From the UHGV virus genome UHGV-1732640: a stretch of 14,821 bases of DNA. One strand, given 5' to 3'. The stretch comes from a virus. The notes beneath the pieces were generated by a model. That model worked only from the letters and a program-made list of their open reading frames with translations. It had not been told where the DNA came from and searched no databases. This document shows positions 1 through 14,430 of this stretch, one piece after another (within the stretch, counting starts at the first letter, position 1; the number at the start of each line of letters is the position of its first letter). Both the position numbers and the translations under genes were made by a program.

Positions 1-186
1 ATCAATATAGATGGACGCGATTGTTGTCAGACAGGACAACCATCACAAGACGTTACAGACGGAGCGCTTACTGGGGGAATAATCAAAAACGATGTACACC
101 GGGTTATTAACGCGTCAACTTAACGTGGGGTTGCTCTTTATGTCAGCCAGTCCGGTGCTGGGGTAGAAAAAACCGGACGTTATGGT

Positions 187-627
187 TTAGTGTGGAAATA
201 TTTGTGATGTGCTCTGTATGTTTTCAGTAAAGAGTAATGAATTATCAAAGGTATAGTAATATCTTTTTTGTTCGTGGATATTTGTAACCCACCGAAAAAC
301 TCCTGCTTTAGCAAGGTTTCTTCTGTATTCCTGAAATGTGATCTCACTGGATTTCAGCTTATTAGAGGTCGTTTCTATAAGATGCCTATCCTTTGAAAAT
401 TTGACAGACACAATGTTTTTTAGGCCCTTTAATAACACTGTATTATCATTTTTTAATACAATATGAACATTATCTGTAGCTAAATAGTAAATGTAATGTG
501 AGACATTGTGACGTTTTAGCTCAGAATAAAACCATTGATAGTTTAAATCGTTTCGAACTTTATCAAATATTTGTTTAAAAATGACTACCTGATCCATAGA
601 TAAACCTTCCATATGGTATGAGGGCAC
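187..627 (-). CDS. Hypothetical accessory protein in AT-rich island (146 aa); possibly related to the YbcV/YdfO-type (DUF1398) proteins of E. coli cryptic prophages
   Basis: Intact 146-codon minus-strand ORF in a region of about 27-30% GC (hand count on 421-480) against about 58% in the structural genes (hand count on 3001-3060). Alternative in-frame starts at Met6 and Met11. Family assignment is from memory and position (between lysis side and small terminase, as in DLP12), not from a search. Confidence 0.55.
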
Positions 628-884
628 GTAGTTTGCAAGATCGTTTTTATCGTTTCAATCTGGTCTGACCTTTATATGTTTTATTGATGATTTATGTCAA
701 AAGTCAGGTGGAAAATACATAGTATTGATTCCGCTATAAAACCTGGTTTTTCTGATATGCCAGGGGGGAAACAAACGACCGATGTATGCAAGATCAACGC
801 GCAGTGACTTCCACACTTCCACGCTCAAAGATTTGAAGTTATATTTTTAGCGACAAGTGAAGAACAAACGCATGGAGCGACAAA

Positions 885-1091
885 ATGCATAAAGATCAAT
901 GTACTGAGGCCCCCTCCCAAGAGCAGGTTCGTGTAAAAACTATGCTTAATAGCACCATTTCGATGAGTTACCCGGATGTTATAATTGCATGTATAGAACA
1001 TCAAGTATCTCTGGAAGCATTCAGGGCAATTGAGGCAGCGTTAGTGAAGCACGATAAGAATACGAAGGATTATTCCCTGGTGGTTGATTGA
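885..1091 (+). CDS. Small hypothetical protein (68 aa), possibly YbcW-like
   Basis: ORF with GGAG about 10 nt upstream of the ATG; divergent from the 187-627 ORF; its size and position match the small ORF that sits before the Nu1 homolog in DLP12-type prophages. Identity is uncertain. Confidence 0.45.
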
Positions 1092-1377
1092 TCACCATAA
1101 CTGCTAACCATTCTGACCATTTCACAAGTGACAGAGTCAATATCGTCCAGTTCGGATGCTGGCTGCATTTCTGAAGATAAGGCATTTCGGTTCTCGTATT
1201 TTCCCCTCATGCTCGTCAGTCCTGCGCGTAGTAAGAAACAGGACACTCACACTAATTTGTGTGGGCATGCTGTGATGTCCTTCTGAATTATCCCCATGCC
1301 ATTATGTAAAGCTCTGTTTCAGATGCTCGTCACGGTTGTCAGGCTGTCGGGTCCTACCAGTGAGGGGCCCTGCCACG

Positions 1378-1389
1378 GGGCGGGAGCGT
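1378..1389. other. cosN-like cohesive-end core (candidate terminase nicking site)
   Basis: ACG|GGGCGGGAGCGT|CGCGG at 1375-1394 aligns to the lambda cos junction ACG|GGGCGGCGACCT|CGCGGG (8/12 in the 12-nt core, flanks conserved). It lies about 175 bp upstream of the small terminase start, as in lambda. Confidence 0.5.
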
Positions 1390-1438
1390 CGCGGAAAAAG
1401 GCTAGTTTTTGAAATTTCATTCGTCATCACCACTACTG

Positions 1439-1451
1439 TAATGTATTGATA
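1439..1451. promoter_or_regulatory. IHF-consensus match (cosB I1-like) centred in an imperfect inverted repeat
   Basis: TAATGTATTGATA matches YAANNNNTTGATW, the complement of IHF consensus WATCAANNNNTTR. It is flanked by inverted repeat ACTGTAAT (1434-1441) / ATTACAGT (1450-1457) and lies about 50 bp downstream of the cosN-like core in A/T-rich DNA. Confidence 0.35.
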
Positions 1452-1563
1452 TTACAGTGGTTTTATTTTTGTGGTGTCGATTTTGATTGTTTTTTGTTCA
1501 TCACTAACACCGTTTGCCTAAAGTTGTTCGCAAGATGCATGTTTAAAACATTCTGGAGCGGGT

Positions 1564-2058
1564 ATGGATCGAGAGTTAAAAAATCTGACGCTGAATATCA
1601 GTCAACTGGCGGCTCTGTCAGGTGTACATCGCCAGACTGCTGCGGCAAGGCTGCAAAATCTACCCGTTGCAGGGGGGCATGAAAGCAACCTCAAGCTTTA
1701 TCGGGGGGTTGATATTGTGTCGGCATTTCTGGCATTACCACCGCCGGTTGCAGAAGGCGAAATGGACGCGCATGAGCGCAAAGCCTGGTATCAGTCTGAA
1801 CGTGAGCGTCTTAAGTTCGAACAGGAAACGGCACAACTCATTCCGGCCAGTGATGTCAGACGGGAGTTTGCCATCTGGGCAAAAGCGGTCGTGCAGGTGC
1901 TGGAGACATTACCGGATATTCTTGAACGTGACTGCGGTCTGCAGCCTGCCGCTGTGAGCCGTGTTCAGTCCATTATTGATGATCTGCGCGATCAGATAGC
2001 CCTGCGGGTGACCGAAGCAGGTGCGGATGATGAGGAGGAATTACAGCGGGAGGAGTAA
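1564..2058 (+). CDS. Terminase small subunit (Nu1-like, N-terminal helix-turn-helix)
   Basis: 164 aa ORF directly upstream of and overlapping the large terminase (TAATG); GGAG 7 nt before the ATG; N-terminal HTH-like segment LNISQLAALSGVHRQTAAARLQ; acidic C-terminus; sits immediately downstream of the cos-like region. Confidence 0.75.
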   Translation: MDRELKNLTLNISQLAALSGVHRQTAAARLQNLPVAGGHESNLKLYRGVDIVSAFLALPPPVAEGEMDAHERKAWYQSERERLKFEQETAQLIPASDVRREFAIWAKAVVQVLETLPDILERDCGLQPAAVSRVQSIIDDLRDQIALRVTEAGADDEEELQREE

Positions 2059-4160
2059 TGCTGAATCAGGAAACCGCAAAGGCAGCACGAACCGATTCAG
2101 GTTATATCCTTCGCGCACCGAGACGAATGCGGGTTGCTGATGCCGTTGCTCAGTATATGCGGGTGCCCATGGGGGCAGGGAACTCAGTCCCGTGGGATCC
2201 GCTGGTGGCACCGTATGTTATTGAGCCGATGAACTGCCTGGCCTCGCGTGAATACGACGCAGTGATATTTGTTGGCCCGGCACGAACCGGCAAGACTATC
2301 GGCCTGATTGACGGCTGGGTGATTTACAACGTGATTTGCGATCCTGCTGATATGCTGATCATACAGATGACGGAGGAAAAAGCCCGCGAACACTCCAAAA
2401 AACGACTCGCCAGAACGTTTCGCGTCAGCCCGGAAGTGGTCAGTCGCCTGAGTCCGAACAAAAATGACAACAACGTTTATGACAGAACATTCCTTGCTGG
2501 TAACTACCTGAAAATCGGCTGGCCGTCAGTCAATATCATGTCCTCATCAGATTATAAATGCGTCGCGCTGACGGATTATGACCGTTTTCCGGAAGATATT
2601 GATGGCGAGGGGGATGCTTTCTCTCTTGCCTCAAAACGTACCACAACATTTATGTCCAGTGGTATGACGCTTGTGGAGAGTTCCCCCGGCAGGGATGTGA
2701 AGGATGTGAAATGGCGACGGACTTCACCGCATGAGGCTCCACCAACCACGGGGATACTGTCGCTCTATAACCGTGGCGATCGCCGTCGCTGGTACTGGCC
2801 TTGTCCACACTGTGGTGAGTATTTTCAGCCCTGCGGCGATGTGGTTGCTGGTTTCCGTGATATTGCCGATCCCGTGCTGGCAAGTGAGGCGGCTTATATT
2901 CAGTGTCCTTCCTGTTCAGGACGGATTATGCCTGAACAAAAACGTGAGCTGAACGGACGTGGGGTCTGGTTGCGGGATGGTGAATCCATCAATGCGGATG
3001 GCAGTCGTTATGGTGATCCCCGACGCTCACGTATTGCGTCATTCTGGATGGAGGGTCCGGCAGCTGCTTACCAGACACTCTCGCAACTCGTTTACAAACT
3101 GCTTACTGCAGAACAGGAATACGAGACAACCGGAAGTGAAGAAACACTCAAGACGGTTATCAATACCGACTGGGGATTACCTTATCTTCCCCGCGCCAGC
3201 ATGGAGCAACGAAAAAGTGAACTGCTTGAGCAGCGGGCAGAGCCAGTTCCTTCCCGCAGTGTGCCGGATGGCGTTAATTTCCTTGTGGCGACAGTGGATG
3301 TGCAGGCGGGACGTCATCGCCGTTTTGTGGTTCAGGTAACGGGCTATGGCAGCCGTGGCGAACGCTGGATTATTGATCGTTACAACATCACGCAGTCATT
3401 GCGCGGTGACAGCGACGGGGAGAGCCAGCGAATTGATCCGGCCAGCTATCCGGAAGACTGGGATGTCCTGCTGACGGATGTTTTTCATAAAAGCTGGCCG
3501 CTGGCCTCCGATCCTTCTCAACAAATGCGACTGATGGCAATGGCGGTGGACTCCGGCGGTGAAGACGGGGTCACTGATAATGCCTATAAATTCTGGCGTC
3601 GTTGCCGTCGTGATGGCCTTGGTAAACGTATTTACCTGTTTAAGGGCGACAGCATCCGGCGCGCAAAACTGATCACCCGTACATTCCCTGATAACACCGG
3701 ACGAACGGGCCGACGGGCGCAGGCCGCAGGTGATGTGCCGCTCTGGCTTCTTCAGACGGATGCACTGAAAGACCGGGTGAATAACGCGTTATGGCGTGAC
3801 TCGCCAGGTCCCGGCTATGTGCATTTCCCTGACTGGCTGGGGAGTTGGTTTTACGACGAACTGACGTATGAAGAGCGGAGCAGTGACGGGAAATGGAGTA
3901 AGCCAGGTCGCGGTGCCAACGAAGCTTTTGACCTGATGGTGTATGCCGAGGCTCTGGTCATTCTGCATGGATACGAAAAGATCCGCTGGCCGGATGCACC
4001 GGAGTGGGCGAGCCGGGAAACCTGGCTGGAGTGTGTCCCGGACAGTACCGAACCGTCACCCACACCGGAACCGGTATCCACGCCTGTTAAAAAACAAAAA
4101 CGGAAGAAAACAGTAACTGACGATGTTAACCCCTGGCTGACTTCCGGAGGATGGTTATGA
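2058..4160 (+). CDS. Terminase large subunit (lambda gpA family)
   Basis: 700 aa; Walker A-like GPARTGKT; CPHCGEYF Cys/His motif comparable to lambda gpA CPHCGEEQ; strong RBS GGGAGGAG; start overlaps the small terminase stop. Confidence 0.9.
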   Translation: MLNQETAKAARTDSGYILRAPRRMRVADAVAQYMRVPMGAGNSVPWDPLVAPYVIEPMNCLASREYDAVIFVGPARTGKTIGLIDGWVIYNVICDPADMLIIQMTEEKAREHSKKRLARTFRVSPEVVSRLSPNKNDNNVYDRTFLAGNYLKIGWPSVNIMSSSDYKCVALTDYDRFPEDIDGEGDAFSLASKRTTTFMSSGMTLVESSPGRDVKDVKWRRTSPHEAPPTTGILSLYNRGDRRRWYWPCPHCGEYFQPCGDVVAGFRDIADPVLASEAAYIQCPSCSGRIMPEQKRELNGRGVWLRDGESINADGSRYGDPRRSRIASFWMEGPAAAYQTLSQLVYKLLTAEQEYETTGSEETLKTVINTDWGLPYLPRASMEQRKSELLEQRAEPVPSRSVPDGVNFLVATVDVQAGRHRRFVVQVTGYGSRGERWIIDRYNITQSLRGDSDGESQRIDPASYPEDWDVLLTDVFHKSWPLASDPSQQMRLMAMAVDSGGEDGVTDNAYKFWRRCRRDGLGKRIYLFKGDSIRRAKLITRTFPDNTGRTGRRAQAAGDVPLWLLQTDALKDRVNNALWRDSPGPGYVHFPDWLGSWFYDELTYEERSSDGKWSKPGRGANEAFDLMVYAEALVILHGYEKIRWPDAPEWASRETWLECVPDSTEPSPTPEPVSTPVKKQKRKKTVTDDVNPWLTSGGWL

Positions 4161-4369
4161 ACGAGAATGATATCGAAGCCATGATTCAGCGTTATACGGA
4201 AGCTGAAATGGCGGTGCTGGACGGAAAATCCGTCACCTTTAATGGTCAGCAGATGACCATGGAAAACTTATCTGAGATCCGGCAGGGGCGGCAGGAGTGG
4301 GAGCGCCGCCTTGCGGCTCTGATTACACGACGACGGGGGCATCCCGGGTACCGGCTGGCGAGGTTCTGA
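4157..4369 (+). CDS. W: Head-tail connector / head-stabilising protein (gpW-like)
   Basis: 70 aa; C-terminal RRRGHPGY resembles lambda W C-terminus RRRGPAGFYV; position between large terminase and portal as in lambda; GGAGG 6 nt upstream; ATGA overlap with the terminase stop. The ATG at 4151 is too close to the RBS. Confidence 0.7.
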   Translation: MNENDIEAMIQRYTEAEMAVLDGKSVTFNGQQMTMENLSEIRQGRQEWERRLAALITRRRGHPGYRLARF

Positions 4370-5877
4370 TGGCAATTCTTGATGATGTGATTGGCGTTTT
4401 TTCACCAGGATGGAAAGCGGCAAGGCTGCGTTCCCGTGCGGTGATCCAGGCTTATGAGGCCGTAAAAACGACGCGGACACACAAAGCCCGGCGGGAAAAC
4501 CGAACTGCCGACCAGTTAAGCCAGTACGGGGCCGTGTCGTTACGTGAGCAGGCCCGTTACCTTGATAACAACCACGATCTGGTCATTGGTGTATTTGACA
4601 AGCTGGAAGAACGGGTGGTGGGGAAAAACGGGATTATTGTCGAGCCACATCCGGTATTACGCAATGGGGCCATTGCCCGTGACCTGGCTGCGGAGATTCG
4701 CACCCGATGGAGTGAATGGTCTGTCAGCCCGGAAGTCACCGGGCAGTTTACCCGTCCGATGCTGGAACGTCTGATGCTGCGTACCTGGCTGCGCGATGGT
4801 GAGGTGTTTGTCCAGATGGTTTCCGGGCGCATAAACAGCCTGACGCCTTCTGCCGGTGTTCATTTCTGGCTGGAGGCACTCGAGCCGGACTTTATTCCCA
4901 TGACCAGTGATGAGAGCAACAGGCTGAATCAGGGCGTGTTTGTTGATGACTGGGGGCGTCCCGAAAAATATCTGGTGTATAAAAGTCGTCCCGTATCCGG
5001 ACGGCAGATGGAAACCAAAGAAGTGGATGCAGAGCGAATGCTGCATCTTAAATTTGTTCGCCGTCTGCACCAGATGCGCGGGACGTCTTTGTTGTCCGGT
5101 GTGCTGATCCGCCTCAGTGCCCTGAAAGAGTATGAAGATTCTGAGCTGACTGCAGCAAGGATCGCCGCTGCTCTGGGGATGTACATCCGGAAAGGCGACG
5201 GGCAGAGCTATGAACCGGATGGTAATGGCAGCAAGGATAAGGAACGCGAGCTTACCATTCAGCCAGGCATTATTTACGACGATCTGAAACCCGGCGAAGA
5301 AATCGGAATGGTGAAGTCGGATCGTCCCAATCCTAACCTTGAAACTTTTCGTAATGGTCAGTTGCGTGCCGTGGCGGCGGGCAGTCGTCTGAGTTTTTCC
5401 AGTACGGCACGCAACTATAACGGCACTTACAGCGCCCAGCGTCAGGAGCTGGTTGAATCCACTGATGGCTACCTGATCCTGCAGGACTGGTTTATTGGTG
5501 CCGTCACCCGCCCGATGTATCGTGCCTGGCTGAAACAGGCTGTGGCATCCGGTGTTATCAGGCTACCCCGCGATCTTGACCGTTCTTCACTGTATACCGC
5601 GGTGTATTCCGGACCGGTGATGCCGTGGATTGACCCTGTTAAGGAGGCTGAGGCCTGGAAAATTCAGATTCGTGGTGGAGCAGCGACAGAATCAGACTGG
5701 GTACGTGCAGGTGGTCGTAATCCGAATGATGTCAAACGTCGGCGCAAGGCCGAAATTGATGAAAACCGCACGCTGGATCTGGTATTTGATACCGATCCGG
5801 CCAGTGATAAAGGAGGCAGCAGTGCCGCAACGAAACGACAAGAGCCGCAGCACACCGACGACCAGTCCGAAGAATAA
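4369..5877 (+). CDS. Portal protein (lambda gpB family)
   Basis: 502 aa from the ATG at 4369, which overlaps the W stop (TGATG) and has GAGG 5 nt upstream; the ORF extends upstream to 4297 but without a plausible start. Segment SRLSFSSTARNY resembles lambda B MSYSTARAS; position after W. Confidence 0.88.
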   Translation: MAILDDVIGVFSPGWKAARLRSRAVIQAYEAVKTTRTHKARRENRTADQLSQYGAVSLREQARYLDNNHDLVIGVFDKLEERVVGKNGIIVEPHPVLRNGAIARDLAAEIRTRWSEWSVSPEVTGQFTRPMLERLMLRTWLRDGEVFVQMVSGRINSLTPSAGVHFWLEALEPDFIPMTSDESNRLNQGVFVDDWGRPEKYLVYKSRPVSGRQMETKEVDAERMLHLKFVRRLHQMRGTSLLSGVLIRLSALKEYEDSELTAARIAAALGMYIRKGDGQSYEPDGNGSKDKERELTIQPGIIYDDLKPGEEIGMVKSDRPNPNLETFRNGQLRAVAAGSRLSFSSTARNYNGTYSAQRQELVESTDGYLILQDWFIGAVTRPMYRAWLKQAVASGVIRLPRDLDRSSLYTAVYSGPVMPWIDPVKEAEAWKIQIRGGAATESDWVRAGGRNPNDVKRRRKAEIDENRTLDLVFDTDPASDKGGSSAATKRQEPQHTDDQSEE

Positions 5878-5890
5878 TTCCTGGTTCAGG

Positions 5891-7849
5891 ATGCAGGCTG
5901 GTCACCAGAGTGACGCGGATATTTATATTTATGACGAGATTGGTTTCTGGGGTGTTACAGCGAAGCAGTTTATCAGTGATCTGAATGCACTGGGCGATAT
6001 CACCCACATTAATCTCCATATCAATTCACCGGGTGGCGATGTCTTTGAAGGCATCGCCATTTTTAATGCACTGAAAACACATGGTGCGTCCATTACCGTT
6101 TATGTCGACGGTGTGGCGGCGTCAATGGCGTCGGTCATTGCGATGGTGGGAAACCCGGTCATTATGCCGGAAAACACCTTCATGATGATTCATAAACCAT
6201 TTGGCTTTACGGGCGGTGATGCGGAGGACATGCGCACCTATGCCGACCTGCTCGATAAGGTTGAGGCGGTTCTGTTACCCGCTTATGCACAGAAAACCGG
6301 GAAAACCACCGATGAAATTGCTGCCATGCTGGCGGATGAGACCTGGATGTCCGGTGCCGAATGTCTGGCACATGGATTTGCTGATCAGGTGACGCCAGCC
6401 GTTAAGGCAATGGCATGTATTCAGTCAAAACGTACAGAGGAATTTAAAAAGATGCCGGAATCCATTCGAAACATGATTACTCCGCCACGCAACAGTGCTC
6501 CACGCGTACAGGATGATGAACCTGCAGCCTCCCGGACGCCAGTGCAGGCAGCAGCACCCGTGGTGGATGAAAACAGTATCCGTGCGCAGGTACTGGCAGA
6601 GCAAAAAGCGCGTGTAAACGGTATTAATGATCTGTTTGCCATGTTTGGCGGGCGTTATCAGACGCTGCAGGCTCAGTGTCTTGCCGATCCTGAATGTTCG
6701 CTGGAGCAGGCCCGCGAAAAGCTGTTGAACGAGATGGGGCGCGAGTCCACGCCATCCAATAAAAATACACCGGCTCATATTTATGCCGGTAACGGTAATT
6801 TTGTGGGGGACGGGATCCGCCAGGCGCTGATGGCGCGTGCCGGATTTGAAAAAACCGAACGTGATAATGTCTACAACGGGATGACCCTGCGTGAATATGC
6901 CCGTATGTCACTGACTGAACGGGGTATTGGGGTTTCCAGTTATAACCCGATGCAGATGGTCGGTGCGGCGTTCACACACAGTACGTCTGACTTCGGTAAT
7001 ATTCTGCTGGATGTTGCGAACAAAGCCATTCTGCAGGGCTGGGAAGATGCTCCTGAAACCTATGAACAGTGGACGCGGAAAGGTCAGTTGTCTGATTTTA
7101 AAATTGCCCATCGTGTGGGTATGGGGGGCTTCAGTGCTCTGCGTCAGGTGCGTGAAGGGGCGGAATATAAATACGTCACCACCGGAGATAAACAGGCCAC
7201 TATTGCACTGGCGACCTATGGCGAGCTGTTCAGTATCACCCGTCAGGCCATTATCAATGATGATCTGAATATGCTGACCGATGTCCCGATGAAACTGGGC
7301 CGTGCGGCGAAATCCACTATTGCCGATCTGGTTTATGCCATTCTGACGTCTAACCCGAAAATCTCCACAGATAATGTAAGTCTGTTCGATAAAGCGAAAC
7401 ATGCAAACGTACTGGAGAGCGCTGCAATGGACGTGGCATCGCTGGATAAAGCCCGCCAGTTGATGCGCGTTCAGAAAGAGGGGGAGCGTCATCTGAATAT
7501 TCGTCCTGCGTTCGTACTGGTACCGACGGCGATGGAGTCTGTTGCTAACCAGGTCATTCGCTCCTCAAGTGTCAAGGGGGCTGACATTAACGCCGGTATT
7601 ATTAACCCGGTGAAAGATTTTGCGACCGTTATTGCAGAGCCTCGTCTTGATGATAACAGCCAGACCACCTTCTACCTGGCTGCGTCAAAAGGCTCCGATA
7701 CGATTGAAGTGGCTTATCTCAACGGTGTGGATACGCCATATATTGATCAGATGGAGGGCTTCAGTGTGGATGGCGTGACAACGAAAGTGCGTATTGACGC
7801 CGGTGTCGCGCCAGTTGATCACCGCGGTCTGGTGAAATGTACGGTGTAA
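5891..7849 (+). CDS. Prohead protease (ClpP-like, S14-type) fused to linker/scaffold region and HK97-fold major capsid protein
   Basis: One uninterrupted frame. N-terminal about 200 aa has ClpP-like motifs (IYIYDEIG, NSPGGDVFEGIAIFNAL, AASMASVIAMVG, MMIHKP); the C-terminal about 330 aa resembles an HK97-type major capsid protein. Start uncertain: ATG 5891 has a weak RBS, while in-frame GTG 5822 follows AAGGAGG by 5 nt. Confidence 0.85.
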   Translation: MQAGHQSDADIYIYDEIGFWGVTAKQFISDLNALGDITHINLHINSPGGDVFEGIAIFNALKTHGASITVYVDGVAASMASVIAMVGNPVIMPENTFMMIHKPFGFTGGDAEDMRTYADLLDKVEAVLLPAYAQKTGKTTDEIAAMLADETWMSGAECLAHGFADQVTPAVKAMACIQSKRTEEFKKMPESIRNMITPPRNSAPRVQDDEPAASRTPVQAAAPVVDENSIRAQVLAEQKARVNGINDLFAMFGGRYQTLQAQCLADPECSLEQAREKLLNEMGRESTPSNKNTPAHIYAGNGNFVGDGIRQALMARAGFEKTERDNVYNGMTLREYARMSLTERGIGVSSYNPMQMVGAAFTHSTSDFGNILLDVANKAILQGWEDAPETYEQWTRKGQLSDFKIAHRVGMGGFSALRQVREGAEYKYVTTGDKQATIALATYGELFSITRQAIINDDLNMLTDVPMKLGRAAKSTIADLVYAILTSNPKISTDNVSLFDKAKHANVLESAAMDVASLDKARQLMRVQKEGERHLNIRPAFVLVPTAMESVANQVIRSSSVKGADINAGIINPVKDFATVIAEPRLDDNSQTTFYLAASKGSDTIEVAYLNGVDTPYIDQMEGFSVDGVTTKVRIDAGVAPVDHRGLVKCTV

Positions 7850-7871
7850 ACGTCGCAGACAACAACTCTGA

Positions 7872-7891
7872 TGGCCCGTAAGGGCTTTTTT
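7872..7891 (+). terminator. Rho-independent terminator-like hairpin after the capsid gene
   Basis: GGCCC-GTAA-GGGC stem-loop followed by a 7-T run, 22 nt after the capsid stop; a second GC hairpin (7904-7920) follows without a T-tract. Confidence 0.5.
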
Positions 7892-7935
7892 TGTACCTGA
7901 AATCAGCCCCTGAACGGGGCTGTGCGGAGACAGTT

Positions 7936-8259
7936 ATGGCAAAGAATTTTGTAGAAGAAGGAAAAACGGTGGCGATTGTTGCCAGTGCAGCCATCAGCAG
8001 CGGAGATCTGGTGCAGGTGGGTGATGTTTTTGCGGTGGCGCTGACCGATATTCCACAGGGTGAAACAGGCGACGGCATGACCGAAGGTGTGTTTATGCTG
8101 CCTAAGCTGAAAACGGATGACATGAAAACGGGTAAGAAGGTTTATCTGAAGTCCGGAAAAGTTCAGCTGACTAACAGCGGCTCTGATCCGCTGGTCGGGG
8201 TTGTCTGGGCAGATGCCGGAACCAGTGCAGAAGAAGTGCCGGTAAAACTCAATGTCTGA
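7936..8259 (+). CDS. Small head protein at the lambda FI/D position (107 aa); possible DUF2190-like decoration or head-completion protein
   Basis: ORF with GGAGA 5 nt before the ATG at 7936 (the ORF-track start at 7891 lies inside the terminator). Located between the capsid gene and the FII-like gene. Functional assignment is tentative. Confidence 0.6.
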   Translation: MAKNFVEEGKTVAIVASAAISSGDLVQVGDVFAVALTDIPQGETGDGMTEGVFMLPKLKTDDMKTGKKVYLKSGKVQLTNSGSDPLVGVVWADAGTSAEEVPVKLNV

Positions 8260-8527
8260 TCCCTTTTCCCGGCTGGCAGCGCATATGGATGCGATCACGG
8301 TCAGAAAGATGGGAAAGACAGCCTCGATTAATGATGCCGATATGACTGTGATCCCGGGAGAAACACTGGCAGAGCTGAATGCTCTGTCCGGACCTGCGGT
8401 CTCTCTGGTGGTGTTTTCTTCGGGATACCGCCCACGGCGCGGGGATCGCGTTGTTTATGACGGACAACAATGGACGGTCACACGGCATGAACGTTTTAAC
8501 GGTAAGCCAATGATCTTTATTGAGTAA
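8252..8527 (+). CDS. Head-tail joining protein (gpFII-like)
   Basis: 91 aa; N-terminus MSDPFSRLAAHMDAITVRKMGKTAS aligns with lambda FII MADFDNLFDAAIARADETIRGYMGTSA; shared RRGD...W.V.R pattern; lies immediately before Z; 8-nt overlap with the preceding gene. Confidence 0.7.
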   Translation: MSDPFSRLAAHMDAITVRKMGKTASINDADMTVIPGETLAELNALSGPAVSLVVFSSGYRPRRGDRVVYDGQQWTVTRHERFNGKPMIFIE

Positions 8528-8538
8528 AGAGGTGTGGG

Positions 8539-9117
8539 ATGAAGGGGCTTGAGAATGCCATCCGTAATCTGAACAGCCTTGATACCCGTATGGTGCCACA
8601 GGCCAGCGCATGGGCGATAAACCGTGTGGCACAGAAAGCGGTCTCGGTCGCCACCCGGCAGGTTGCCGGGAATACCGTTGCGGGAGATAACCAGGTGAAA
8701 GGGATCCCCCTGAAACTGGTACGTCAGCGTGTCCGGGTGTTTAAAGCCAGTCCGTCAGGAAAAATGACGGCCAGGATCCGCGTTAACCGGGGCAATCTGC
8801 CCGCTATTAAGCTGGGGACAGCCCGGGTCAGACTGGCCCGGCGTGGTGGAAAACTGCAGTACCGTGGCAGTGTGCTGAAGGTGGGTAAATATCTTTTCCG
8901 GGATGCGTTTATTCAGCAACTGGCGAATGGTCGCTGGCATGTGATGCGGCGTATTGATGGCAAAAATCGTTACCCCATTGATGTGGTGAAAGTCCCGCTG
9001 TCCGGACCGCTGACACAGGCATTTGAAGATGCCCGCGACCGCATTATTGCTGCGGAAATGCCGAAACAGCTGGGGTATGCACTGAAACAACAACTGAGGT
9101 TATGGCTGACCCGATGA
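8539..9117 (+). CDS. Z: Tail completion protein Z
   Basis: 192 aa, same length as lambda Z, with collinear matches (KGLE..NL, AINRVA, RIRVNRGNLPAIKLG, FIQQLANGRWHVMRR, GKNRYPIDVVK, LGYAL.QQLR); AAGAGG RBS 6 nt upstream. Confidence 0.92.
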   Translation: MKGLENAIRNLNSLDTRMVPQASAWAINRVAQKAVSVATRQVAGNTVAGDNQVKGIPLKLVRQRVRVFKASPSGKMTARIRVNRGNLPAIKLGTARVRLARRGGKLQYRGSVLKVGKYLFRDAFIQQLANGRWHVMRRIDGKNRYPIDVVKVPLSGPLTQAFEDARDRIIAAEMPKQLGYALKQQLRLWLTR

Positions 9118-9515
9118 ACCGACATACACAAATCCGCCAGGCCGTACTGGCACGCCTTCGGGAACAGTGTGGAGACAGCGCCACGTTTTTTGACGGGCTT
9201 CCGGCATTTATTGATGCGCAGGAACTGCCTGCCGTGGCGGTGTGGCTGAGTGATGCTCAGTACACCGGAAAAATGACGGATGAAGATGACTGGCAGGCTG
9301 TTCTGCATATTGCTGTCTTCATCCGGGCACAGGCACCGGATTCAGAGCTGGATATGTGGATGGAGAGCACCATTTTCCCGGCTCTGAATGATATACCGGC
9401 ACTTTCCGGACTCATCGACACCCTGATCCCTCTCGGTTTTAACTATCAACGTGATAATGAGATGGCCACCTGGGCGATGGCGGAAATCACGTACCAGATC
9501 ACGTACACGAATTAA
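9114..9515 (+). CDS. U: Tail terminator protein U
   Basis: Collinear with lambda U (ATFFDG.PA, LPAVAV.L, YTG, LHI.VF, PDSELD.WMES.I.P, IPALS.LI); the start at ATG 9114 (MNRHTQIRQAVL vs lambda MKHTELRAAVL) overlaps the Z stop (ATGA). Confidence 0.9.
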   Translation: MNRHTQIRQAVLARLREQCGDSATFFDGLPAFIDAQELPAVAVWLSDAQYTGKMTDEDDWQAVLHIAVFIRAQAPDSELDMWMESTIFPALNDIPALSGLIDTLIPLGFNYQRDNEMATWAMAEITYQITYTN

Positions 9516-9526
9516 AGGAGGTGGCA

Positions 9527-10270
9527 ATGACCACACCAAATCCACTGGCAAAAACGAAAGGTGCGGGAACGACGTTCTGGATGTACACCGGCAAGGGCGA
9601 TGCGTTTGCGAACCCTTTATCGGACACTGACTGGCTGCGTCTTGCGATGGTGAAGGATCTGCAACCTGGCGAAATGACCGCTGATGCAGAAGATGACACT
9701 TATCTCGATGATGAAGATGCAGACTGGAAAACGACAACCCAGGGGCAGAAATCCGTCGGTGATACTTCGGCGACGCTGGCCTGGCGTCCGGGTGACAGCG
9801 GGCAGAAAAAACTGGTTCAGTTGTTCGACTCCGGTGAAGTCTGCGCGTTTCGTATCAAATATCCCAACGGCACTGTTGATGTTTTCCGTGGCTGGCTGAG
9901 CTCACTGGGTAAAACCATTGCCTCAAAAGACGTGATGACCCGCACAGTGAAAATTAGCGGTGTGGGGCGTCCGCATCTGGCAGAGGAAGGCACTGAAACA
10001 GTGAGCGTTACCGGGCTGACGGTGGCACCGGCATCTGCCAGTGTAAAAGTGGGAGCAACCACCACGCTGACCTTTACAGTAAAACCTGACGGAGCCAGTG
10101 ACAAAGCGATCAGTGTGCATTCGACAGATCCACAGACTGCCACGGTGACCCTGAACGGGCTTGTGGCCACGGTGAAAGGCGTGAAGCAGGGCAGTGTCAG
10201 CATTGTGGGCATGACTTCTGACGGCGATTTTGTGGCCGTGGCTGCGGTGGCTGTCAGCGCCGCAGGTTAA
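9527..10270 (+). CDS. V: Major tail tube protein V with C-terminal Ig-like (Big_2-type) domain
   Basis: Near-collinear with lambda V (KGAGTT.W.Y, ANPLSD.DW.RLA.VKDL.PGE.TA, DDSYLDDEDADW, GDTS.TLAW.PG, NGTVDVFRGW.SS.GK, TRTVK...VGRP); AAGGAGG RBS 6 nt before ATG 9527. Confidence 0.92.
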   Translation: MTTPNPLAKTKGAGTTFWMYTGKGDAFANPLSDTDWLRLAMVKDLQPGEMTADAEDDTYLDDEDADWKTTTQGQKSVGDTSATLAWRPGDSGQKKLVQLFDSGEVCAFRIKYPNGTVDVFRGWLSSLGKTIASKDVMTRTVKISGVGRPHLAEEGTETVSVTGLTVAPASASVKVGATTTLTFTVKPDGASDKAISVHSTDPQTATVTLNGLVATVKGVKQGSVSIVGMTSDGDFVAVAAVAVSAAG

Positions 10271-10290
10271 CAGGACGATACTCATCATTT

Positions 10291-10314
10291 GCCCCGGTTA
10301 TCCGGGGCTTTTTT
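10291..10314 (+). terminator. Rho-independent terminator-like hairpin after V
   Basis: GCCCCGG-TTAT-CCGGGGC stem-loop followed by TTTTTT, 21 nt after the V stop and just upstream of the G RBS. Confidence 0.55.
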
Positions 10315-10330
10315 GCAGGTGGAGAACATG

Positions 10331-10717
10331 ATGTTTCTGAAACAGGGCTCGTTTAATTATGAAAAGCAGTCCGTGGTGCTCAGTGAGCTGTCCGGGCTGC
10401 AGAGAATTGAATATCTGGCGTTTGTTCAGCAGCGAACGGCAAAGTTTGATGCCGAAGAGGGAGAACTGCCGGAGGCTGAACGACAGATTGCTTTTCTGCG
10501 GATGGGGATGGATATCAATGCCTGGCTGGTTTCCCGCTCACTGTGGAATGCGGAACAGTCTCAGGATGTTGAGACGCTTTGCGCATCCGTTATTACAACA
10601 TGGTCGTATGATGCCCTGGGAGCGGGGGCGGAGATGGTTCTGTCGCTGAGCGGTATGGGAGCCATTGAGAATGCCGGGGATTTGGAGCATGAGGTGCTGA
10701 CGCCGGAAAAGTCCTGA
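10331..10717 (+). CDS. G: Tail assembly chaperone G
   Basis: N-terminus MFLKQGSFNYEKQSVVLSELSGLQRIEYLAF parallels lambda G MFLKTESFEHNGVTVTLSELSALQRIEHLAL; GGAGA 5 nt before ATG 10331. Confidence 0.88.
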   Translation: MFLKQGSFNYEKQSVVLSELSGLQRIEYLAFVQQRTAKFDAEEGELPEAERQIAFLRMGMDINAWLVSRSLWNAEQSQDVETLCASVITTWSYDALGAGAEMVLSLSGMGAIENAGDLEHEVLTPEKS

Positions 10718-11055
10718 CGCGGGAAATGCAGTTTGTCATGCGGCTTGCCCGGGAGTTCCGGCGGGCAGACTGGCGGCGGATGCTGTCGGAAATGTCGGCC
10801 ACTGAGCTTGGTGAATGGGGCGATTATTTCCAGATGCAGAGCTTCAGTGATGTGTGGATGGATGCGCAGTTTGCCTCGCTGAAGGCATTGATCGTGAGAA
10901 TGGTGTCCGGTAGCAGTGATGCTGCGGTGGCTGATTTCAGCCTTTTACCGGAAGAGAACGGGATACCGGAGCGAACGGACGAAGAACTGATGCATCTTGG
11001 GGAAGGTATTTCCGGAGGTGTGCGTTATGGACCAGATAGCCAACCTGGTCATTGA
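10331..11055 (+). CDS. T: Tail assembly chaperone G-T fusion, predicted to arise by a programmed -1 ribosomal frameshift near 10705-10711
   Basis: The T frame is -1 relative to G and is open from 10693, overlapping the last 7 G codons. The only A-rich candidate slip site is G GAA AAG (10705-10711), against lambda G GGA AAG. The ATG at 10726 has no RBS, consistent with T being made only as a fusion. The arrangement is conserved in lambda-like tail modules. Confidence 0.6.
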
Positions 11056-14000
11056 TTTGGGGATTGATGCGGCAGAGTTTAAAAATGAAATTCCCCGTAT
11101 CAAAAACCTTCTGAATGGTGCAGCCAGCGATGCAGAACGGTCTTCTGCCCGTATGCAGCGTTTTATGGAGCGTCAGACTCAGGCCGCCCGGCAGACAATG
11201 CAGGCGGCTTCTTCGGCTGCAACAGCCGCATCCGTCCATGCGCAGACGGTGGAGAAGAGCGCACAGGCTCATGAACGCATGGCCCGCGAGGTGGAGCAAA
11301 CCCGCCAGCGTATGGAGGCACTGAGCCAGAAAATGCGCGAGGAACAGGCGCAGGCCATGGCTCTGGCGGAGGCTCAGGATAAAGCGGCTGCCGCGTTTTA
11401 TCGTCAGATTGACAGTGTGAAACAGGCCAGTGCGGGACTGCAGGAATTACAGCGTATTCAGCAGCAGATCCGACAGGCCAGAAACAGTGGCGGGATTGGT
11501 CAGCAGGATTATCTGGCGCTGATTTCTGAGGTTACGGCGAAAACCGGTGTTCTTACGCAGGCTGAGGCAGAGGCTACCCGACAGAAAGTGGCGTTTATCC
11601 GTCAGCTTAAAGAGCAGGCAACCCGCCAGAATCTTTCTTCTTCTGAGTTGCTTCGTGCTAAGGCTGCCCAGCTGGGGGTAAGCAGTGCTGCAGAAGTGTA
11701 TATCCGCAAAATGGAGCAGGCAGGAAAAGCCACGCATTCGCTGGGTCTGAAAAGTGCAGCGGCCCGCCAGGAGATAGGCGTTCTGATAGGTGAACTGGCT
11801 CGCGGCAATTTAGGTGCGCTGAGGGGATCCGGGATAACGCTGGCTAACCGTGCCGGATGGATAGACACACTGATGTCACCGAAAGGCATGATGCTGGGCG
11901 GGGTTATTGGCGGTATTGCCGCGGCCGTCTATGGTCTGGGTAAAGCCTGGTATGATGGTCAGAGGGAGGGGGAAGAATTTAACCGCCAGTTGTCGCTGAC
12001 GGGGCATTATGCCGGAGTCACTGCCGGGCAGCTGTGGACGCTCAGTCGTGCTATTTCCGGGAATGGTATTACGCAACATGCTGCAGCCGGTGCGCTGGCT
12101 CAGGTGGTGGGGAGTGGTGCATTTCGTGGAAACGATATCGGTATGGTGGCGAGAGCTGCCGCACAGATGGAGCGATCGGTTGGCCAGTCGGTCAGCGATA
12201 CCATAAATCAGTTTAAGCGGCTGAAGGATGATCCTGTAAATGCCGCGAAGGCTCTGGACAATGAGCTGCATTTTCTTACTGCCACTCAGCTTGAGCAGAT
12301 ACGCGTCCTTGGGGAACAGGGGCGGTCCAGTGATGCGGCACGGATAGCCATGTCTGCACTGGCAGAGGAAACCGGTCGGCGTACTGCGGATATTGATAAT
12401 AACCTCAATGCGCTGGGCAGTACGCTGAAGTATCTGTCTGATTTATGGAGTCGTTTCTGGGATGCGGCCATGAATATTGGTCGTGAAGACTCGCTGGATG
12501 AACAGATTTCCGCTTTACAGGAGAAAGTGTCGCGGGCGAAAAGACTCCCCTGGACGGCATCATCTTCTCAGGTTGAGTACGATCAGCAGCGTCTTAACGA
12601 GCTTCAGGAGAAAAAACGCCAGAAGGATTTGCAGGATGCAAAAGAGCAGGCAGAGCGGAATTATCAGGAGCAACAGAAACGCCGTAATGCTGAAAATGCT
12701 GCACTGAACCGGATGAATGAAACGGAAGCAGCACGACATCAGCGTGAAATTGCGCGTATTAATTCCATGCAGTACGCCGATCAGGCTGTCAGGGATGCGG
12801 CGATACAACGTGAAAATGAACGTTACGAGAAAGCCCTGGCATCCGGTAAGAAAAAAACACGCGAACCCCGTAATGATGAGGCCACCCGGTTATTGCTGCA
12901 GTACAGTCAGCAACAGGCACAGGTGGAAGGACAGATTGCTGCTGCCAGACAGTCAGCAGGCATTGCCACGGAAAGGATGACAGAAGCGCATAAACAGCTT
13001 CTGGCTCTGCAGCAGCGCATCAGCGACCTGGACGGGAAAAAACTGACGGCAGATGAAAAGAGTGTGCTGGCCCGTAAAGATGAACTGATTCAGGCACTGA
13101 CGCTGCTGGATGTAAAACAGCAGGAGCTTCAGAAACAGACGGCACTCAACGAGCTGAAGAAAAAAACAATTCAGCTGACCAGTCAACTGGCTGAAGAAGA
13201 GCGCGCTCAGCGTCAGCAACATGACCTGGATATCGCCACGGTGGGTATGGGTGATCAGCAGCGGCAGCGATATCAGGTACAACTGAGTCTTCGCCAGAAA
13301 TACCAGCAACAGCTGGAGCAGTTGAGGCGGGATAGTGAGCAGAAAGGAACATATAACACGGATGACTACAGAAAGGCCGAGCAGGCGCTGACGGAGAGCC
13401 TGAACCGACAACTGAATGAGAATCGCCGTTACTGGCAACAGCTTGAAGTTGTGCAGGGTAACTGGAAAAACGGAGTCCTGCGTGCATTTCAGGATTTTAC
13501 CGTGGATGCAGATAATACGGCAGGAACAGCAGAACAGGGGTTCTCGTCAGCCTTCAGCAACATGGGAAATGGCCTGGCAACTTTTGTCACTACCGGCAAA
13601 CTCAATTTCAAATCCTTCACCTCTTCTGTGCTGTCAGATATGGCGAAAATCCTGGCGCAGGCAACCATGATGAAATCGATAAAAGGGATTGGCAGTGTAC
13701 TGGGATTTGATCTCAGCAGCCTTTCCCTGAATGCCAATGGGGGGATTTATCAGTCTGCTGATTTGAGTCGTTACAGTGGCACGGTGGTTAACCGTCCGAC
13801 GTTTTTTGCTTTTGCAAAAGGCGCGGGTGTGATGGGGGAAGCGGGACCTGAAGCCATTCTGCCACTGCGTCGTGGTGCTGACGGTAAGCTGGGGGTTGTG
13901 GCGGATATTGGTGGTTCAGGTATGGCGATGTTTGCCCCGCAGTACAACATCGAGATCAATAACGATGGCACGAACGGGCAGATAGGTCCGGCTGCCCTGA

Positions 14001-14092
14001 AGGTGGTTTATGACCTCGGGAAAAAAGCGGCAGCGGACTTTATACAACAGCAGGCCCGTGATGGTGGTCGGTTAAGTGGAGCATATCGGTAA
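11027..14092 (+). CDS. H: Tail tape measure protein H
   Basis: 1021 aa from ATG 11027 (GGAGG 8 nt upstream; the ORF-track start at 10997 is a TTG). N-terminus LVIDLGIDAAEF resembles lambda H LVVDLSLDAARF; C-terminus NNDGTNGQIGPAALKVVYD...RDGG is nearly identical to lambda H; long Q/E/R/A-rich central region. Confidence 0.92.
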   Translation: MDQIANLVIDLGIDAAEFKNEIPRIKNLLNGAASDAERSSARMQRFMERQTQAARQTMQAASSAATAASVHAQTVEKSAQAHERMAREVEQTRQRMEALSQKMREEQAQAMALAEAQDKAAAAFYRQIDSVKQASAGLQELQRIQQQIRQARNSGGIGQQDYLALISEVTAKTGVLTQAEAEATRQKVAFIRQLKEQATRQNLSSSELLRAKAAQLGVSSAAEVYIRKMEQAGKATHSLGLKSAAARQEIGVLIGELARGNLGALRGSGITLANRAGWIDTLMSPKGMMLGGVIGGIAAAVYGLGKAWYDGQREGEEFNRQLSLTGHYAGVTAGQLWTLSRAISGNGITQHAAAGALAQVVGSGAFRGNDIGMVARAAAQMERSVGQSVSDTINQFKRLKDDPVNAAKALDNELHFLTATQLEQIRVLGEQGRSSDAARIAMSALAEETGRRTADIDNNLNALGSTLKYLSDLWSRFWDAAMNIGREDSLDEQISALQEKVSRAKRLPWTASSSQVEYDQQRLNELQEKKRQKDLQDAKEQAERNYQEQQKRRNAENAALNRMNETEAARHQREIARINSMQYADQAVRDAAIQRENERYEKALASGKKKTREPRNDEATRLLLQYSQQQAQVEGQIAAARQSAGIATERMTEAHKQLLALQQRISDLDGKKLTADEKSVLARKDELIQALTLLDVKQQELQKQTALNELKKKTIQLTSQLAEEERAQRQQHDLDIATVGMGDQQRQRYQVQLSLRQKYQQQLEQLRRDSEQKGTYNTDDYRKAEQALTESLNRQLNENRRYWQQLEVVQGNWKNGVLRAFQDFTVDADNTAGTAEQGFSSAFSNMGNGLATFVTTGKLNFKSFTSSVLSDMAKILAQATMMKSIKGIGSVLGFDLSSLSLNANGGIYQSADLSRYSGTVVNRPTFFAFAKGAGVMGEAGPEAILPLRRGADGKLGVVADIGGSGMAMFAPQYNIEINNDGTNGQIGPAALKVVYDLGKKAAADFIQQQARDGGRLSGAYR

Positions 14093-14421: not shown

Positions 14422-14430
14422 GAGGCTCTG

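Follow-up and report, generated by a model that had tools for sequence, protein, structure and literature searches.

A probable counterpart of the lambda right-end accessory region upstream of cos in virus genome UHGV-1732640

Immediately upstream of a lambda-like cos in virus genome UHGV-1732640, two small open reading frames (ORFs) diverge from an AT-rich intergenic region, which raises the question of whether they make up a single acquired island of cargo or have separate histories and separate roles. The window considered here is the whole stretch of DNA that was analysed, 14,821 nucleotides long, and the region in question occupies positions 187–1091. We consider it likely that this region is the prophage's version of the accessory region at the right end of lambda, extending from the lysis genes to cos, and that it holds two unrelated, independently inherited genes, one of the DUF1398 family and one ybcW-like.

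Composition and layout upstream of cos

First, the base composition of the region is clearly atypical. Its GC content is 35.9%, against a mean of 53.7% for bases 1564–14821 (905-bp windows; standard deviation 1.7%, minimum 50.1%), a dip of about 10 standard deviations under the rest of the window, where the sole comparable low-GC segment is the cosB-like stretch at 1400–1560. The original prediction had proposed a foreign composition from a sample at 421–480 of about 27% GC, and both the sample (26.7% when computed) and the full profile bear it out; its description of the region as the only obvious cargo likewise holds, as the window has no other AT-rich cargo. The value of about 58% GC that it gave for the structural genes belongs to the upper range and overstates the mean of 53.7%. 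Within the region the DUF1398 gene is the most extreme part (GC 30.7%, GC3 29%, as compared with 53.7% and a standard deviation of 2.3% in 411-bp windows of the rest), while the ybcW-like gene, at 42.0%, is only moderately atypical. The intergenic spacer at 598–884 is indeed AT-rich (39.0% GC), as had been supposed, but less so than the DUF1398 gene.

Second, the two ORFs are confirmed, one on the minus strand (187..627, 146 aa from a GTG) and one on the plus strand (885..1091, 68 aa). The predicted 146-aa reading exists as the maximal ORF; the real gene is most likely shorter and starts at the ATG at 597 (Table 1), because YdfO, YbcV and the 55989 annotation are all 136 aa long and a GGAAGG motif precedes this ATG. 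At the left edge, positions 1..72 are 98.6% identical to a multi-copy sequence adjoining the tnpA gene of IS66-like elements, and an apparent ORF end at 1–123 was rejected as an artefact of this junction. An Rfam scan of positions 1–2200 at E ≤ 1 returned no RNA family.

Third, the region sits 258–287 bp upstream of the lambda-like cosQ/cosN, in agreement with the predicted location just upstream of cos: the cosQ- and cosN-like sites fall within 1349–1389 and the terminase genes follow. The arrangement is that of a lambda-type cos in sequence, with GGGTCCT some 24–30 bp 5′ of a G-rich cosN and the small-terminase gene (terS) next, at 1564. The slot between the lysis genes and cos is also, as anticipated, the accessory slot in which lambdoids carry bor, as seen in lambda and DLP12; lom, which had been named alongside bor, is by established knowledge not an occupant of that slot in lambda.

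Table 1. Features of the region and its cos-proximal neighbourhood (positions in the window)
Feature	Position	Strand	Remarks
IS66-family insertion sequence end	1..72	.	Left edge of the accessory region, outside the island; prophage homology starts at 72
Exchangeable DUF1398 cassette	72..718	-	Gene, 5′ leader, promoter and regulator boxes; about 31% GC; antisense to late operon
DUF1398 (ydfO/ybcV-type) gene, 136 aa	187..597	-	Pfam PF07166; Shine-Dalgarno GGAAGG at 605–610
PdhR-box homologue ATCTGGTCTGACCTTTA	658..674	.	Core TGGTCTGACC at 661–670; overlaps predicted DUF1398 transcript start
Sigma-70 promoter-like site, TTGACA-N18-TATAAA	671..700	-	Toward the DUF1398 gene; 11/12 consensus matches; prediction only
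Conserved box TTGATGATTTATGTCAA (FNR-type)	684..700	.	Overlaps −35 hexamer; core identical in window, lambda and DLP12
ybcW-like module	719..1146	+	Right half of spacer, gene and 3′ flank; common to nearly all relatives, contiguous with cos region
ybcW-like gene, 68 aa	885..1091	+	Acidic product, predicted three-helix bundle; phrog_657; Shine-Dalgarno GGAG at 874–877
80-bp deletion scar, 9-bp direct repeats CAATATCGT	1138..1146	.	From alignment with the 55989 prophage and locus L055; deletion relative to all relatives
cosQ-like GGGTCCT	1349–1355	+	Lambda-like spacing to cosN; predicted
cosN-like GGGCGGGAGCGT	1378–1389	+	ACG/GGGCGGGAGCGT at 1375–1389 (ACG/GGGCGG, 1375–1383); matches lambda cos junction; predicted cleavage site
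Terminator-like hairpin, 13-bp stem then T run	1432..1471	+	Terminator scan and fold; between cosN and small-terminase gene
DUF1441 small-terminase gene	1564–2058	+	Pfam
gpA-type large-terminase gene	2058–4160	+	Pfam

Identity of the two genes and their products

The original assignment of the products as YbcV/YbcW-like and DUF1398 is correct by Pfam, 2HH8, phrog_657 and comparison with K-12 and lambda. The minus-strand product aligns with all 119 positions of Pfam PF07166, the YdfO/YbcV/YcgX family (E 3.9e-46; 156.4 bits at a cut-off of 22; profile 1–119), and with about 96% identity to E. coli K-12 YdfO, for which there is an NMR structure (PDB 2HH8; E 3.7e-84, aligned 1–135). The plus-strand product spans positions 1–68 of 68 of phrog_657 (E 4.2e-46), is 78% identical to both K-12 YbcW and lambda p79 (lambdap79), and has no Pfam, NCBIfam or PDB match; the NCBIfam search gave nothing meaningful for either protein. 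Several leads on the DUF1398 protein were set aside. A phmmer match to Parafibromin (E 0.008) is treated as spurious because it is lost in the profile search, the PHROG “head protein” label of phrog_413 is unsupported, the AlphaFold model is too poor to use (pLDDT 50), and a published claim that YdfO confers oxidative-stress resistance traces to a mis-citation of YfdO.

Spurious ORFs are common in AT-rich DNA, and there is decay close by, in the IS66 end (1–72) and the 80-bp deletion at 1138; both would suit a reading of the two ORFs as functionless, either decaying remnants or chance ORFs in an AT-rich spacer. Against this, purifying selection acts on both genes. The dN/dS ratio is 0.17–0.20 for the DUF1398 gene (against lambda and DLP12) and 0.43–0.49 for the ybcW-like gene, in which changes lie mostly in the first 16 residues and the C-terminal 50 are strongly conserved. 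Full-length conservation extends from lambda through K-12 to the window, the YdfO NMR structure is folded, transcripts of the orthologues are regulated, and the genes occur in 35–49% of E. coli genomes: among 5426 complete genomes, 2652 (about 49%) have the DUF1398 gene and 1916 (about 35%) the ybcW-like gene. The dN/dS values, together with a Shine-Dalgarno sequence before each gene, argue that both are real, and the idea of remnants, to which we attach almost no credence, is refuted as far as sequence evidence reaches.

Another reading takes the DUF1398 protein for an anti-phage or superinfection-exclusion factor, or for an envelope protein. In many prophages the moron slot is taken by genes for defence or conversion, the changes in one phage-resistant APEC isolate included the loss of ydfO, and some records say “putative envelope protein”. 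The APEC case amounts, however, to one gene loss that coincided with other changes, and the “envelope protein” label of old lambda annotations has no sequence support: the DUF1398 protein has no signal peptide and no transmembrane segment (maximum KD19 0.48), and its NMR structure is that of a soluble protein. Hydrophobic segments were sought in both proteins and none was found; nor did a PADLOC search with both give any defence-family match (best E 0.011 and 0.014, far from significance). Such an exclusion or envelope function is in our judgement quite improbable.

The YbcW-like family is tiny and limited to Escherichia-type lambdoids. An exhaustive representative search with the 68-aa protein gave 122 matches, nearly all of them fragments or error-ridden copies of lambda, and only two truly divergent homologues, of which more copies were sought in viral and metagenome contigs and none found; genome matches in unrelated taxa stem from contamination with lambda spike-in DNA and were discarded as evidence of real distribution.

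Separate inheritance and the linkage to cos

The modular inheritance of the region is directly visible in related viral loci, 80 in number but mostly close relatives and hence representing only a few independent lineages. All 80 contain the ybcW-like gene, and 74 of them have it without DUF1398; the DUF1398 cassette is found in the other six (blastn block 72–1146). In 71, homology begins at about position 719, inside the spacer (block 719–1146), and a csp/gnsB-type AT-rich cargo occupies the DUF1398 slot. Conversely, Qin has ydfO without ybcW, and ycgX-type loci likewise carry DUF1398 alone. Judged by these alignments, the presumed pair consists of two independent modules that meet at a mosaic breakpoint near 719, and the DUF1398 and ybcW-like genes pass on separately and not as a unit, a result that this analysis adds.

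The proposal of one island with a divergent pair is therefore not supported, given the breakpoint in 71 of the 80 loci, the solitary ybcW-like gene in 74 and the solitary ydfO of Qin. In its strongest form it would have the two genes acting as one system (exclusion, toxin–antitoxin or defence) under a shared bidirectional control region, and certain observations do fit: the divergent layout with its shared 287-bp spacer is kept in lambda, DLP12 and the window, and in K-12 deletion of pdhR shifts the mRNAs of the two genes in the same way, as does MotB. Yet the genes assort independently, differ in GC (31% vs 42%), show neither the obligate co-occurrence nor the defence-family match expected of a two-gene defence or toxin–antitoxin system, and yield only insignificant PADLOC matches. 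In lambda, moreover, CRISPRi against lambdap78 gave an efficiency of plating (EOP) of about 1–2, with no plating defect (PMC10695390). We regard a single two-gene system as very unlikely.

Comparison with known prophages places the region more precisely. Lambda lambdap78/lambdap79 (J02459, about 47042–47944, between bor and cos) has the same genes, order, orientation and spacer architecture, with about 80% nucleotide identity to window positions 75–1140, and both regions lie upstream of cosQ/cosN. Unlike lambda, the window has neither bor nor the DUF3950 (YlcI-like) ORF, its small terminase is DUF1441-type where that of lambda is Nu1-type, and its cosN is a variant; the DUF1398 allele belongs to the Qin ydfO type and is preceded by a better −10 hexamer (TATAAA vs CACAAA in lambda). 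The ybcV–ybcW region of DLP12 shares order, orientation, the PdhR box and the TTGATGATTTATGTCAA box with the window. Qin has neither ybcW nor the promoter half of the spacer, and there ynfO (DUF3950) adjoins ydfO, whereas the window joins a Qin-type ydfO allele to an intact ybcW-like gene. The csp/gnsB cargo of sister prophages (as in Qin cspI–ynfN–gnsB) fills the same lysis-to-ybcW slot and is also AT-rich (28–40% GC), but it encodes unrelated proteins (cold-shock and GnsB-like) and lies on the plus strand.

The original description of the region as moron-like consequently applies to one gene only. The DUF1398 cassette shares with bor-type (Hendrix) morons its atypical composition, its own promoter-like site, its anti-late orientation and its presence/absence variation, and its lambda orthologue appears dispensable by knockdown; it differs from them in that no clear terminator was found, a terminator scan and fold 3′ of the gene having revealed no canonical intrinsic terminator. 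The ybcW-like gene fits poorly, as it is on the late strand, near-constant among relatives and mildly AT-rich, and it fails the presence/absence criterion because it is present in all related loci. Nor is separate acquisition supported for this gene: of the plus-strand ORFs that follow the lysis genes it is the one nearest cos, and because it shares the strand of the late operon and is inherited together with cos and the terminase genes, it resembles the final ORF of that operon more than separate cargo.

How tight this linkage is can be seen in about 90 loci, where GGGTCCT-N15-30-GGGGNGG lies at a fixed distance (about 340 bp) downstream of the ybcW-like gene; counted from the start of the ybcW-like gene, the small-terminase gene lies at +759 or +808 bp in nearly all intact loci, and the linkage spans three small-terminase types, namely Nu1, DUF1441 and a variant of DUF1441 with only 42% identity. 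One may then ask whether the YbcW-like protein is itself a cos-linked packaging factor (for terminase or cos recognition, termination, or helper–satellite competition), a late protein rather than cargo. Its gene is invariably the ORF next to cos, at a constant spacing, whether the small terminase is of the Nu1 type or of one of the two DUF1441 types; the gene points the same way as the late operon; the C-terminal 50 residues of the protein are strongly conserved; and a 47%-identical copy adjoins a cosQ-like site (47 bp before it, with a Nu1-like terS) in a compact PICI-like satellite that has no DUF1398 gene. However, adjacency to a recombination-conserved cos block would explain the linkage equally well, because satellites copy cos-flanking DNA from their helpers. 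The second divergent copy (locus L006) has no recognisable cos nearby, the fold predicted for the YbcW-like protein (AF2 model, pLDDT 74) is a generic three-helix bundle with no match to a DNA-binding or terminase-related fold, the family is very small and found only in lambdoids of the Escherichia type, and the lambda orthologue is listed as non-essential. CRISPRi targeting of lambdap79 reduced the EOP to about 1e-4 despite that listing (PMC10695390); we read this effect as probable polarity, by likeness to the lambda nin region, for which, rather than for lambdap79, CRISPRi polarity has been demonstrated (PMC10695390). A packaging factor is in sum unlikely, and we continue to prefer a late ORF inherited alongside cos.

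Host regulators and proposed roles

The spacer carries conserved regulatory sequences upstream of the DUF1398 gene. In a scan of both strands over 560–900, the promoter-like site at 671..700 is the only one that reaches 9 or more of 12 consensus matches, and the PdhR box that overlaps it is kept in every DUF1398-bearing locus aligned. The window's PdhR box matches the site AtcTGGTctgACCtcTT found by SELEX-chip in the K-12 ybcV/ybcW spacer, and in a K-12 pdhR mutant the ybcV and ybcW mRNAs are about 10-fold lower (PMC7660256). An FNR ChIP peak has been recorded at K-12 ybcW, with the listed motif TGTTGATGATTTATGTCAAATATT as the counterpart of the TTGATGATTTATGTCAA box (PMC1802558). Hha has a binding site at ybcW and acts as an inducer of that gene (PMC2408971), and ybcV and ybcW rise more than 1000-fold under T4 MotB, a protein that alters repression by H-NS (PMC7827196). 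The placement of the PdhR box over the predicted transcript start is typical of repression, yet pdhR deletion lowered the mRNAs. Judged by consensus, the ybcW-like gene has a weak promoter (TTCCAC-N17-TATATT, 7/12), and its expression in the prophage may therefore depend on activators.

Taking the region as a lambda-type accessory region with two separately inherited genes, we propose the following division of labour. The DUF1398 gene, foreign in composition, AT-rich and antisense to the late operon, would be a moron-like cassette with a sigma-70 promoter of its own (TTGACA-N18-TATAAA); its transcription is probably held down by H-NS/Hha silencing and adjusted by host regulators whose boxes lie over that promoter (PdhR, and an FNR/CRP-type site). 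Its product is predicted to be a soluble, basic, cytoplasmic alpha/beta protein, and because phage growth does not appear to need it, its likeliest field of action is lysogen physiology. The ybcW-like gene, as the last late-strand ORF before cos, is inherited with the cos/terminase module and is most likely expressed when Q-antiterminated late transcription reads through it, with which our polarity reading of the lambdap79 result agrees; it may also be weakly transcribed by itself. Its product is predicted to be a small acidic three-helix protein, and is listed as non-essential in lambda.

As for what this means, the feature is real but ordinary, because both genes are well known from lambda and K-12. 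Rather than the uncharacterised novelty originally suggested, they are long-catalogued genes (lambdap78, lambdap79, ybcV, ybcW and ydfO), and for phage biology the finding as such is accordingly not new. What value is left lies in the fact that neither gene has an assigned function, although lambda carries both and each is found in between a third and a half of E. coli genomes. If the packaging reading were true, the orphan lambdap79 would gain a role in DNA packaging in lambda itself. The modular picture suggests that the two are best treated separately, the one as a swappable, host-regulated DUF1398 moron and the other as a cos-linked late ORF.

Composition and identity of the island

The island reads most coherently as a lambda-type accessory region, set between lysis genes and cos and made up of two independent parts. 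Averaging 35.9% GC, the island at 187-1091 dips about 10 standard deviations below the remaining window (mean 53.7% over bases 1564-14821; sd 1.7% and minimum 50.1% in 905-bp windows), and it is the sole such dip except for a short stretch at about 1400-1560 beside cos. GC amounts to 30.7% in the DUF1398 gene (GC3 29%), 39.0% in the spacer separating both genes, and 42.0% in the ybcW-like gene. The original prediction of two small ORFs on opposite strands of an AT-rich segment is thereby confirmed as an observation, its interpretation being partly supported; its figure of about 27% GC for a sample at 421-480 agrees with the computed 26.7%, but its estimate of about 58% for the structural genes falls to an average of 54%. 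The 146-aa minus-strand frame it described does exist, but the gene itself most likely begins at the ATG at 597, which is preceded by a GGAAGG ribosome-binding site (605-610), because the resulting 136 aa equals the length of the orthologues and of the nearest relative's RefSeq annotation.

Features of the island, its spacer and the adjacent packaging module
Feature	Position	Strand	Remarks
DUF1398 ORF, maximal	187..627	-	146 aa from GTG; six-frame listing
ybcW-like ORF	885..1091	+	68 aa; six-frame listing
Sigma-70-like promoter site TTGACA-N18-TATAAA	700 to 671	-	Only strong such site in 560-900
Conserved box TTGATGATTTATGTCAA	684-700		Holds the -35 hexamer; motif under FNR ChIP peak at K-12 ybcW (PMC1802558)
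PdhR-site homologue ATCTGGTCTGACCTTTA	658-674		Directly downstream of -10; PdhR site in K-12 ybcV/ybcW spacer (PMC7660256)
ybcW-like promoter candidate TTCCAC-N17-TATATT	817-845	+	Best found, weak
cosQ-like GGGTCCT	1349-1355	+	Matches lambda cosQ
cosN-like ACG|GGGCGGGAGCGT	1375-1389	+	Matches lambda cosN, lambda spacing
DUF1441-type small-terminase gene	1564-2058	+	Pfam
gpA-type large-terminase gene	2058-4160	+	Pfam

The original YbcV/YbcW-like and DUF1398 assignments proved correct. The DUF1398 protein matches its Pfam family over the full length (E 3.9e-46) and shares about 96% identity with E. coli K-12 YdfO (NMR structure 2HH8); the 68-aa YbcW-like protein, for which Pfam, NCBIfam and PDB searches gave no match, aligns end to end with phrog_657 (E 4e-46) and is 78% identical to both K-12 YbcW and lambda lambdap79. 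The island is thus a catalogued feature, known already in kind and in sequence. Among 5426 complete E. coli genomes, 2652 carry the DUF1398 gene and 1916 the ybcW-like gene. With the lambda and DLP12 alleles as reference, DUF1398 has a dN/dS of 0.17-0.20 and the ybcW-like gene one of 0.43-0.49; replacements in the ybcW-like protein fall nearly all within the first 16 residues, the other 50 being almost invariant. The ybcW-like gene's GGAG ribosome-binding site is invariant across all aligned loci, as are the 13 bases preceding the ATG. By these patterns both ORFs are real genes. Relative to lambda, the ybcW-like gene has diverged far less at synonymous sites (dS 0.22-0.25) than DUF1398 has (0.53-0.63), a contrast that would fit separate module histories or an added DNA or RNA constraint near cos.

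The YbcW-like family is small, with only 122 matches among 1.84 billion cluster representatives searched, most of them fragments or lambda gene copies full of errors, and many stemming from contigs of about 3.5 kb and from "genomes" of unrelated taxa contaminated by lambda spike-in DNA. About 30 such assemblies (comparison loci L013-L045; e.g., Streptomyces, Cohnella, Pseudomonas, Flavobacterium, and several MAGs) include contigs of 48.5 kb or roughly 3.5 kb that match the lambda right end identically; they are contamination from spike-in or control DNA, which also inflates the protein-cluster counts of both genes. In species-representative genomes, YbcW-like matches in true chromosomal context are all from Escherichia. 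Two homologues only are truly divergent, one (47% identical) in a PICI-like satellite and one (55% identical) in an AlpA/Rep-type element, near which no recognisable cos was found; further scans turned up no additional examples of these two variants.

Two modules rather than one divergent pair

Over 75-1140 the window shares about 80% identity with lambda 46944-47993 and likewise with DLP12, both of which are arranged as Rz, bor, ybcV (-), ybcW (+), a DUF3950 ORF (-), and cos/Nu1; lom, offered earlier alongside bor as a moron of this slot, does not belong to it. The nearest relative, a prophage of E. coli 55989, is 100% identical over 72-1146. To the left, bases 1-72 form one terminus of an IS66-family insertion sequence and share 98.6% identity with a multi-copy sequence found beside tnpA, mostly on plasmids. 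Prophage homology begins only at 72, so that the frame seemingly ending at 123 is an artefact of this junction; the DUF1398 gene has been cut off from the lysis genes that would be expected to its left.

The two genes were originally taken as one island, and this did not hold. Among 80 related viral loci, retrieved together with 36 genome loci through the YbcW-like protein, DUF1398 lies upstream of the ybcW-like gene in only six, and 74 have the latter without DUF1398. Nucleotide homology to the window starts at 719 in 71 of the 80, inside the spacer and immediately right of the conserved regulator boxes, and continues to 1146 and through cos; in these loci the slot between spanin and ybcW-like genes is occupied by other AT-rich cargo (28-40% GC), including a cold-shock protein and a GnsB-like protein. 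Qin conversely has ydfO without ybcW, and K-12 carries a stand-alone DUF1398 homologue, ycgX, elsewhere. In L055, a sister prophage, positions 3300-4750 hold a cold-shock gene, an 89-aa ORF, and a GnsB-like gene at 28-40% GC, as in most sister prophages, which marks the slot as a hot spot of cargo exchange. The left part, 72-718, is most likely a moron-like DUF1398 cassette: its composition is foreign, it runs antisense to the late operon, and other cargo can take its place.

Predicted regulatory signals of the DUF1398 cassette

In the aligned loci the PdhR-type and FNR-type boxes are kept solely where DUF1398 is present, and hence form part of its cassette. An Rfam search returned no RNA family in the island region. 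In K-12, a pdhR mutant shows an approximately 10-fold decrease of ybcV and ybcW mRNAs (PMC7660256), Hha binds at ybcW and induces it (PMC2408971), and ybcV and ybcW rise more than 1000-fold under T4 MotB, a protein that alters H-NS-dependent repression (PMC7827196); strong induction of ydfO by ionic liquid and a convergent transcript overlap between ybcW and ylcI are also on record. Together these reports fit a picture of AT-rich DNA that is under xenogeneic silencing and conditionally expressed. Gene identity, base composition and inheritance by modules are demonstrated directly, whereas we infer promoter use, silencing, timing, and cellular role; the DUF1398 cassette would have its own predicted promoter under host-regulator and probably H-NS/Hha control.

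The ybcW-like gene, cos and the products of the region

The predicted location just upstream of cos is borne out by lambda-like cosQ and cosN sites followed by terminase genes. The ybcW-like gene belongs to the cos-proximal module and lies on the strand of the late operon: its distance to the cosQ-cosN pattern is constant (about 340 bp) and that to the small-terminase gene fixed at +759 or +808 bp, across one Nu1-type and two DUF1441-type terminases (the latter mutually 42% identical), the exceptions being degraded prophages with a terminase deletion in one and an IS66 insertion in another. Downstream of the gene, at 1138-1146, the window lacks 80 bp present in all relatives and flanked by 9-bp direct repeats (CAATATCGT), which looks like slippage or a short-repeat deletion. 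Between cosN and the small-terminase start, a 35% GC stretch contains a hairpin with a 13-bp stem and a T run behind it (1432-1471) that could insulate the terminase genes from prophage-state ybcW-like transcription or form part of a cosB-like structure.

The satellite carrying the 47%-identical homologue is ordered DUF927 primase, PerC, E-type capsid, D-type decoration, YbcW-like, the last with its stop codon 47 bp ahead of a GGGTCCT cosQ-like site and then a Nu1-like small-terminase gene; DUF1398 is absent. This satellite (L008 2800-5860, and L009), from a non-E. coli enterobacterium and with lambda-type E and D genes, has an unusual capsid-encoding layout. A capsid-forming PICI in E. coli 873.10 (L127 5733-5918) encodes a YlcI/YnfO-family (DUF3950) protein, the family of the small ORF that lambda and DLP12 have between ybcW and cos and that the window lacks. 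The chief competing explanation that would be novel is that the YbcW-like protein acts in packaging or between helper and satellite. The constant position beside cos, satellite included, is suggestive of such a role, yet we regard it as improbable, given that simple adjacency would explain the linkage equally well, that the lambda orthologue is non-essential, and that the fold is uninformative. In the lambda CRISPRi map, targeting lambdap79, a gene classed there as non-essential, cuts plating about 10,000-fold, and dCas12a blocks have polar effects on essential genes further downstream (PMC10695390); the simplest reading would be that the late transcript passes through lambdap79 into Nu1 and A. 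Knockdown of lambdap78, the DUF1398 orthologue, is without plating effect (EOP 1.3-1.9; PMC10695390). From 719 onward comes the ybcW-like gene, the last late-operon-strand ORF ahead of cos; it is inherited along with the packaging genes, and its expression is most likely late.

The literature holds no functional result for either protein. The protection from oxidative stress ascribed to overexpressed YdfO (PMC4077768, citing PMC3105296) is a mis-citation, the cited study having dealt with YfdO of prophage CPS-53 without mention of ydfO. Neither the basic DUF1398 protein (pI 9.5) nor the acidic YbcW-like protein (pI 5.5) has a hydrophobic segment (maximum 19-residue Kyte-Doolittle 0.48 and 1.07, respectively), so that the "putative envelope protein" and "head protein" labels in records are without sequence support. 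The "envelope" and "oxidative stress" labels in literature and databases are therefore unsupported and call for correction; the DUF1398 product would instead be a soluble, cytoplasmic protein, unneeded for lytic growth and presumably active in the lysogen, and the YbcW-like product probably a small helical protein, non-essential in lambda.
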